Virus record (IMG/VR): IMGVR_UViG_2627853794_000002
Span: 1-40,524 of that record
From: a virus
Lineage: Duplodnaviria; Heunggongvirae; Uroviricota; Caudoviricetes
Direction: 5' to 3' (one strand)
Length of the DNA stretch: 40,524 bases
Both the position numbers and the translations under genes were made by a program. Positions 1,568 to 2,341 of the stretch are shown in pieces. Under the pieces are notes generated by a model, which saw only the letters and a list, made by a program, of their open reading frames with translations, was not told the DNA's origin and made no database searches. How positions within the stretch are numbered: the first letter of the stretch is position 1; the number at the start of each line of letters is the position of its first letter.

Positions 1568-2341
1568 ATGGATATTACTGAGTTTCCTTCTGGAGTAATT
1601 GAACACCTTGGCTGGTATGTATACCGATTGATTGATCCTAGGGACGGAAGCACCTTCTATGTAGGGAAAGGCAAAGGTAACCGCGTATTTGCCCATATGC
1701 GCGGTGAAGTGGCAGCGACTGATGATGACGAGTTACTGAGCAACAAGCTAAAGCAAATCAGAGAAATAAGGTTAGCAGGACTTGAAGTTATCCATGTCAT
1801 CCATCGACACGGAATGACTGATGAAAAGACGGCGTACGAAGTTGAAGCTGCACTTATTGATGCCTACCCTGGGTTAACGAATATCATGAATGGTGCTGGC
1901 AGCAATGAATTCGGCGCCGCGCATGTCAAAGAGTTGATAGCAACATATCAACCCGAAACCATAACATTTCATCATAAAGCATTAATGATTTCCGTTAACA
2001 GAAGTGCAAAGGATTCAGAGCTTTATGATGCGGTTCGATTTAGCTGGCGCATTAATGTCTCTCGCGCCAGCCAAGCAGAAGTCATTCTTGCTACTGTAAG
2101 GGGAATCGTTCGAGGGGTTTTCATTGCTGATAAATGGCTCAAATCAACACGTGAAAATTTCCCTACGATGAAATACTGGGACGAGGATCCTGACTTTGAG
2201 GCAACACAAAGTTCTCGCTATGGTTTTGAAGGCCGAGAAGCCCCACCTGAAATAGCAAATCTTTATCTTGGAAAAAAAATACCAGATGAATTAAGAAAAA
2301 AAGGAGCTATGTCCCCGGTCCGTTACTCACCTAATTTTTGA
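1568..2341 (+). CDS. GIY-YIG nuclease-domain protein with uncharacterised C-terminal domain
   Basis: N-terminal motif YVYRL...[10 protein letters not shown] followed by conserved E (YEVEAAL) and N (NIMNG); ATG at 1568 preferred over TTG at 1517 of the ORF track; convergent with pin. Confidence 0.6.

Follow-up and report, generated by a model that had tools for sequence, protein, structure and literature searches.

A pin-adjacent prophage gene very probably encodes a functional allele of the type IV restriction nuclease CMoRE (PD-T4-3)

Overall, analysis of a 40,524-nt stretch of Caudoviricetes DNA (IMG/VR record IMGVR_UViG_2627853794_000002; "the window" denotes this whole stretch) leads us to believe that a gene at the terminus of the prophage it contains very probably encodes a functional allele of CMoRE, the modification-dependent nuclease first named PD-T4-3. 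The gene is an intact 774-nt open reading frame (ORF) on the plus strand at 1568..2341, with its ATG at 1568 and its stop codon at 2339-2341, specifying 257 amino acids plus the stop (RefSeq WP_000355484.1). An identical coding sequence is present in RefSeq in Escherichia coli O157:H16 strain Santai (NZ_CP007592.1), of which the window is the reverse complement. CMoRE is an already known system: it has been named, is included in PADLOC/DefenseFinder, and has been biochemically dissected and crystallised. For the window gene, identity with this system is established at the level of sequence, motifs, fold and genomic slot, while expression and activity of the allele in this strain would follow by analogy with the characterised enzymes.

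The assignment is carried by several matches. The PADLOC model for PD-T4-3 (PDLC04031) aligns to residues 1-256 over its 256-position profile with an E-value of 2.4e-140, thus covering both domains of the protein, and phrog_5356, a PHROG of unknown function, matches with an E-value of 2e-143. A PDB search with the window protein returned two sequences only, the E. coli O157:H7 PD-T4-3/CMoRE protein (9U75, 9U8D) and the CMoRE of strain APEC O1 (9U7U, 9U7Z), and an NCBIfam search matched nothing. The first of these is nearly the same protein (phmmer E 3.7e-172), with 253 of 257 residues identical (98.4%). The four differences, written from the window protein to 9U75, are T51A, E55D, Q169K and N197H, none of which lies at a functional or conserved position. 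E55 and N197 of the window protein are the residues of the APEC O1 enzyme, and N197 is nearly invariant in a 77-sequence family alignment, where positions 51 and 169 are variable. The residues retained in the window protein comprise Y17, Y19 and Y31 of the GIYxY-YIG motif, R39, E91/E93, N108, V92, L96, Y127, which contacts the ligand, and the DDDE run at 52-55. In addition, WP_000355475.1 of O157:H7 strain 86-24 has exactly the sequence of the crystallised O157:H7 protein (100% identity), and its gene sits between an AraC-family gene and pinE, convergent with pinE, in the same slot as the gene described here, which is thus a positional allele of the characterised enzyme.

The nuclease domain occupies the first part of the gene (1568..1939, plus strand). 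The initial annotation had read a GIY-YIG catalytic core from the letters alone, and that reading holds up: the motifs it quoted are all present (YVYRL at residues 17-21, the second motif at 30-39, YEVEAAL at 90-96 and NIMNG at 105-109), and the match of Pfam LEM-3_GIY-YIG (PF22945) to residues 28-110, at E 2.1e-14 and 54.2 bits where 27 would suffice, is not due to chance. The generic GIY-YIG family PF01541 stays below threshold (13.9 vs 22.6). The three motif tyrosines, the catalytic arginine (R39) and the catalytic glutamates (E91, E93) are in place as in the crystallised enzymes. Tyrosine mutants of the published enzyme lose all activity (PMC12923530). V92 and L96, the tetramer-interface residues that published mutants show to be required for defence (PMC12923530), are likewise conserved. 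At 1721..1732 (plus strand) lies the acidic run D52-D53-D54-E55 of the autoinhibitory loop; the loop reads AATDDDELL in the window protein, AAADDDDLL in 9U75 and AAVDDDELL in 9U7U, and its four consecutive acidic residues are identical to those of the APEC O1 structure.

The Pfam family name might suggest a repair nuclease, and the closest structural neighbour of the CMoRE nuclease domain is indeed UvrC (PMC12923530). We regard such a role as barely conceivable, for a modified-base sensor domain is present, the gene is accessory (found in 838 of 5426 E. coli genomes and sited at prophage ends), and its deletion in a natural isolate altered phage sensitivity only (10.1101/2024.12.20.629700).

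The properties of the published enzyme give the gene its expected function. PD-T4-3 was recovered, as a GIY-YIG nuclease from ECOR68, among the 21 systems obtained when E. coli fosmids were functionally selected for defence against T4 (Vassallo et al. 2022, PMC9519451), and was renamed CMoRE by Liu et al. (Nat Commun 2026, PMC12923530). Expressed from the native promoter, the O157:H7 enzyme lowers plating of T2, T4 and T6 by about five logs, with no abortive infection; the DNA that it binds and degrades contains 5-hydroxymethylcytosine (5hmC) or glucosyl-5-hydroxymethylcytosine (5ghmC), and it neither binds nor cleaves DNA with cytosine or 5-methylcytosine (5mC), and is active on T-even genomes only among those tested (PMC12923530). 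Cleavage follows a CN11/N9G pattern, leaves 2-nt 3' overhangs and needs two modified cytosines; the enzyme is a tetramer whose assembly is needed for defence, 5hm-dCTP is bound by its C-terminal domain, for which ligand-bound crystal structures exist, and neutralising the acidic lid loop (the 4A mutant) yields a toxic enzyme that cuts ordinary DNA (PMC12923530). In a clinical isolate, deletion of PD-T4-3 sensitised the cell to Tevenvirinae phages (10.1101/2024.12.20.629700), and a Capnocytophaga homologue, PD-T4-3Capno, 48% identical, degrades T4 DNA but not unmodified T4-GT7 DNA (PMC12366544).

Thus, a mechanism can be carried over from the 98.4%-identical O157:H7 protein. The window protein would assemble as a tetramer, a dimer of dimers, in which the C-terminal domain would bind DNA bearing 5-hydroxymethylated or glucosyl-hydroxymethylated cytosines, as in T2, T4 and T6. 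A dimer would read two modified cytosines about 21 bp apart, and the N-terminal GIY-YIG domain would then cut between the two (CN11/N9G), with Mg2+ or Mn2+, leaving 2-nt 3' overhangs. The acidic loop over the active site is predicted to exclude ordinary and 5mC DNA, and the host chromosome would thereby be spared. Defence would be direct rather than abortive.

The initial annotation had left two roles open, a stand-alone defence nuclease or a free-standing homing endonuclease, and only the first has held: defence has been shown experimentally for the family and for the 98.4%-identical positional allele. A GIY-YIG homing endonuclease would instead spread by cutting a cognate intron-less or gene-less site, and there are observations that could be taken that way, since the homing-endonuclease PHROG phrog_314 matches weakly over the nuclease core (E 0.0021), full-length jumbo-phage homologues carry the depositors' label 'putative homing nuclease', and a module of about 1 kb containing the gene occurs in differing prophage contexts. 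However, Pfam scans of the window protein found no NUMOD, IENR1 or other homing-type DNA-binding domain (helix-turn-helix included), the C-terminal domain binds modified cytosine in crystal structures, and the near-identical O157:H7 protein degrades the T4 genome genome-wide with only the CN11/N9G pattern, leaving unmodified DNA intact (PMC12923530). The edges of the module, moreover, fall at the prophage end and a terminator, not at a disrupted target gene. With published restriction of modified phage DNA set against a marginal match, we consider a homing role highly improbable.

The range of modifications recognised by CMoRE is a different matter. The protein could be a CMoRE-family nuclease whose range is broader than, or different from, 5hmC and 5ghmC, extending for example to the carbamoylmethyl-adenine of Mu, with T-even restriction being only part of its role. 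PD-T4-3Capno in fact emerged from a Mu-directed selection, and at high concentration this enzyme degrades Mu DNA; PD-T4-3 in a native host spared some Tevenvirinae (Mosigvirus) and hit a Dhakavirus (10.1101/2024.12.20.629700). The Mu activity of the homologue, however, needed 0.1-1 uM protein or induction (PMC12366544), and the specificity of the O157:H7 enzyme for modified T-even genomes, described above, points to a narrower range. We judge this alternative unlikely, and retain a functional CMoRE allele directed at 5hmC and 5ghmC as the preferred interpretation.

At the same time, several observations weigh against that interpretation. A promoter scan upstream of the gene found no plus-strand consensus sigma-70 site above threshold, and expression from the prophage is thus extrapolated only from the native-promoter result for O157:H7. 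The 170 nt upstream of the gene differ at about 15 positions from the copy in O157:H7 strain ECP19-598, and the APEC O1 enzyme is weak in defence from its own promoter (PMC12923530). T51 and Q169 occur in neither crystallised protein, at the two positions noted above as variable in the family. A possible promoter could be read as TTGTGA (1507-1512), a 17-nt spacer and TAATAT (1530-1535).

The C-terminal portion of the protein (residues 125-257, including Y127; 1940..2338, plus strand) had seemed unassignable in the initial annotation, which proposed domain searches as the way forward. In one respect this was borne out: Pfam applied to these 133 residues alone returned no match even at E<=10. 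It was the PADLOC and PDB matches that identified the protein as CMoRE/PD-T4-3, and the domain is the 5hmC/5ghmC-sensing domain of CMoRE, with ligand-bound structures available. This sensor was published as a 'distinct fold with no homologues' (PMC12923530). A word-indexed homologue search with the domain yielded mostly fragments, and an exhaustive representative search was used instead; with the domain alone against 1.84 billion representatives, it found 969 relatives. Among the 147 best representatives, LEM-3 GIY-YIG is the partner in 49, and partners in others are HSDR_N (PD-(D/E)XK), PLDc_2/RE_NgoFVII, HEPN_Swt1, MmeI_N and McrB-type AAA_5. In ten long proteins the PD-T4-3 model matches the sensor half only. 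Such varied fusions are what one would expect if the sensor were a portable reader of modified bases. As to ancestry, Pfam searches of the C-terminal domain in 147 diverse homologues gave no PUA-like (EVE/ASCH/YTH/SRA) match at E<=0.01, and a 43-sequence profile of the domain, run against all PDB sequences, found CMoRE entries only and no sequence link to EVE, YTH or ASCH.

Side by side with these fusions we observed the sensor domain without GIY-YIG at the N-terminus of a McrB-type AAA_5 protein (P0247), inside proteins of 600-720 aa in which no further domain could be recognised, and on its own in ORFs of about 120-135 aa; proteins that have the sensor but not GIY-YIG include P0247, P0244, P0249, P0164, P0190 and P0158.

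A tentative synthesis, to which we give a little less than an even chance as a whole, would make the sensor a very divergent PUA-like (EVE/YTH/ASCH-type) reader that is portable among GIY-YIG, PD-(D/E)XK (HSDR_N), PLD, HEPN and McrB-type AAA+ effectors, and would treat the end of e14-like prophages distal to pin as a slot in which modification-dependent restriction cargo is exchanged, filled by mcrA in e14, by CMoRE here and by a 215-aa protein elsewhere.

The locus itself bears out what the initial annotation had said of the gene's position, namely that it is convergent with pin, separated from it by a hairpin, at the prophage terminus and in the place that mcrA takes in e14. The convergent neighbour is the serine invertase gene pinE (2399..2953, minus strand; RefSeq annotation). 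The two genes are separated by 57 nt containing a hairpin whose core (2361..2399) has a folding free energy of -20.9 kcal/mol and a z-score of -3.7 against shuffles. The hairpin is conserved in three other genomic contexts and is probably a bidirectional terminator and the right edge of a portable module; a simple terminator scan missed it because it lacks a T-run. The Rfam family CssrB scored 31.4 bits over the hairpin (2365-2421, minus strand) against a gathering score of 76, and was judged a by-product of a generic hairpin. The e14 analogy holds to the nucleotide: the blastn match of the window to e14 sets in precisely at the 3' end of pin, at window position 2398, and within this region covers pin only, in a K-12 prophage whose gene order is ymfQ-stfP-tfaP-tfaE-stfE-pinE-mcrA followed by the end of the prophage.

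On the other side of the gene, a non-coding region (1398..1567, plus strand) is carried along with it, for it accompanies the gene, conserved, in each of the O157:H7, DS26-1 and R6 contexts. Directly upstream of this region lie the 3' 71 nt of the tRNA-Ser(CGA) gene serU (1327..1397, minus strand, by alignment to K-12 serU), preceded by chromosomal flanking sequence with homology to the yodB-serU intergenic region of K-12 (1049..1326); blastn aligns 1049-1397 of the window at 96.6% identity with the K-12 yodB-serU spacer and the adjoining serU 3' 71 nt. ARAGORN found no intact tRNA at the fragment, which on this alignment is a displaced tRNA 3' end marking an integration junction that lies some 170 bp upstream of the ATG, so that CMoRE is the terminal gene inside the prophage end. 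The gene has this junction on one flank and the terminator and pinE on the other, and the shared module holds this ORF alone, as fits a single-gene system with no partner. Rfam hits to Plastid-psbl-rps4 and tRNA-Sec on the serU fragment (1330-1381, plus strand) fell below the gathering score and were judged tRNA-fragment by-products.

The prophage has two mismatched ends. Adjacent to the integrase end is an intact tRNA-Thr(CGU) gene, thrW (39081-39156, beside proA), while the CMoRE end has the serU fragment, and adjoining that fragment and its roughly 280 bp of serU-downstream chromosomal flank is an AraC-family gene. A second copy of the thrW attachment site was sought in 1-3000, where no shared word of at least 11 nt was found, and elsewhere in the window the thrW repeat has no counterpart with 3 mismatches or fewer. 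Alignment of the region upstream of the AraC-family gene to K-12 ykgA-rclC showed no real homology. The same arrangement of AraC-family gene, serU fragment and CMoRE occurs in O157:H7, DS26-1 and CEC96047, and therefore reflects either an old rearrangement or a captured flank.

CMoRE moves as a compact unit. A module of about 1.03 kb, consisting of the upstream region, the gene and the hairpin (1371..2399, plus strand), is delimited by strain R6, which shares exactly this interval at 96.7% identity (blastn), at a lambdoid prophage end at ssrA; in strain DS26-1 the module is found without pin. The module is thus common to unrelated prophage ends. In E. coli R6 (L004:2918-6774), CMoRE has as direct neighbours the genes of a type II restriction endonuclease and a DNA cytosine methyltransferase; the three make up a defence cluster bounded by ssrA and the tail-fibre genes at the lambdoid prophage end. 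In a different prophage, at the yfhH/tadA locus of E. coli O103:H2 strain 129 (L009:2773-3420), and likewise in L010 (2773-3420), the pinE-convergent terminal slot holds the 215-aa protein WP_001288820.1, which has a hydrophobic stretch at its N-terminus and no Pfam or PADLOC match, and which by its position is a candidate cargo or defence gene. Full-length CMoRE homologues (38-45% identity, both domains) are also encoded by jumbo phages of about 250-285 kb (records H51-H67), among them Serratia phage Moabite (MK994515.1, 6406-7161), Pseudomonas phage OBP and Klebsiella phage N1M2; depositors label them endonuclease or, as mentioned, homing nuclease, and they may serve phage-versus-phage exclusion of hmC-type competitors.

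CMoRE is widespread. Of the 838 complete E. coli genomes with matches to the gene, 823 hold at least 80% of it. The window protein heads a 90%-identity cluster of 1045 member sequences, in a family of more than 6500 clusters at 90% identity spread over many phyla. An intact gene in 823 of 5426 genomes is consistent with purifying selection. In RefSeq the product still goes only by the name 'LEM-3-like GIY-YIG domain-containing protein', yet about 15% of complete E. coli genomes encode this type IV restriction enzyme, which will shape susceptibility to T4-like therapeutic phages. Beyond the publication, the present analysis contributes the portable module of 1 kb, the slot equivalent to that of mcrA, the fusions of the sensor to other effectors and the possible PUA-like ancestry of the sensor. 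These are leads for the evolution of type IV restriction, not a new kind of system.

More generally, the prophage combines early genes of lambdoid type with a head of the HK97 type, a contractile tail and a tail-fibre segment that Pin can invert. Beside pinE, a 28-nt inverted repeat (93% complementary; 3015-3042 and 4573-4600) flanks a segment of about 1.5 kb in which genes for a tail-fibre C-terminus and for tail-fibre assembly occur as two sets in opposite orientations, which is a Pin-invertible host-range switch. Downstream of the Q antiterminator gene is a cluster of four tRNA genes (24168-24477): Gly-UCC, Thr-UGU, Lys-UUU and a CAU-anticodon tRNA called Met by ARAGORN and Ile by RefSeq.

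Among known systems, the closest is the O157:H7 CMoRE (9U75, 9U8D), which has the same 257-aa length, GIYxY-YIG motif, acidic loop, sensor domain and tetramer-interface residues, and whose gene lies in the same slot between the AraC-family gene and pinE. It differs by the residues T51, E55, Q169 and N197 of the window protein, by about 3% nucleotide divergence (the main O157:H7 allele is 96.8% identical) and, in strain ECP19-598, by the single-nucleotide differences in the upstream region. The APEC O1 CMoRE (9U7U, 9U7Z), 85.2% identical, has the same architecture and shares E55 and N197 with the window protein, and is set apart by 38 substitutions and by its weak native-promoter defence in the published work (PMC12923530). 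The EVE-HNH and other PUA-superfamily type IV enzymes (for example VcaM4I, PDB 6YEX) and the N-terminal readers of McrB have no detectable sequence-level relationship to the CMoRE sensor; relative to the EVE-HNH enzymes, the domain order of CMoRE is reversed, with the nuclease N-terminal, and its ligand is described as bound at an edge, not in a pocket (PMC12923530). McrA of e14, lastly, is an unrelated protein with a C-terminal HNH nuclease, a different N-terminal reader and a 5mC target (C5mCGG), and a Pfam scan of the window protein found no HNH domain, which places it outside McrA; mcrA is also co-directional with pinE, whereas CMoRE is convergent with it. Nonetheless, McrA belongs to the same class, the single-protein type IV nucleases that depend on modified cytosine, and its gene occupies the same slot, directly after pinE, as the last gene before the prophage end.
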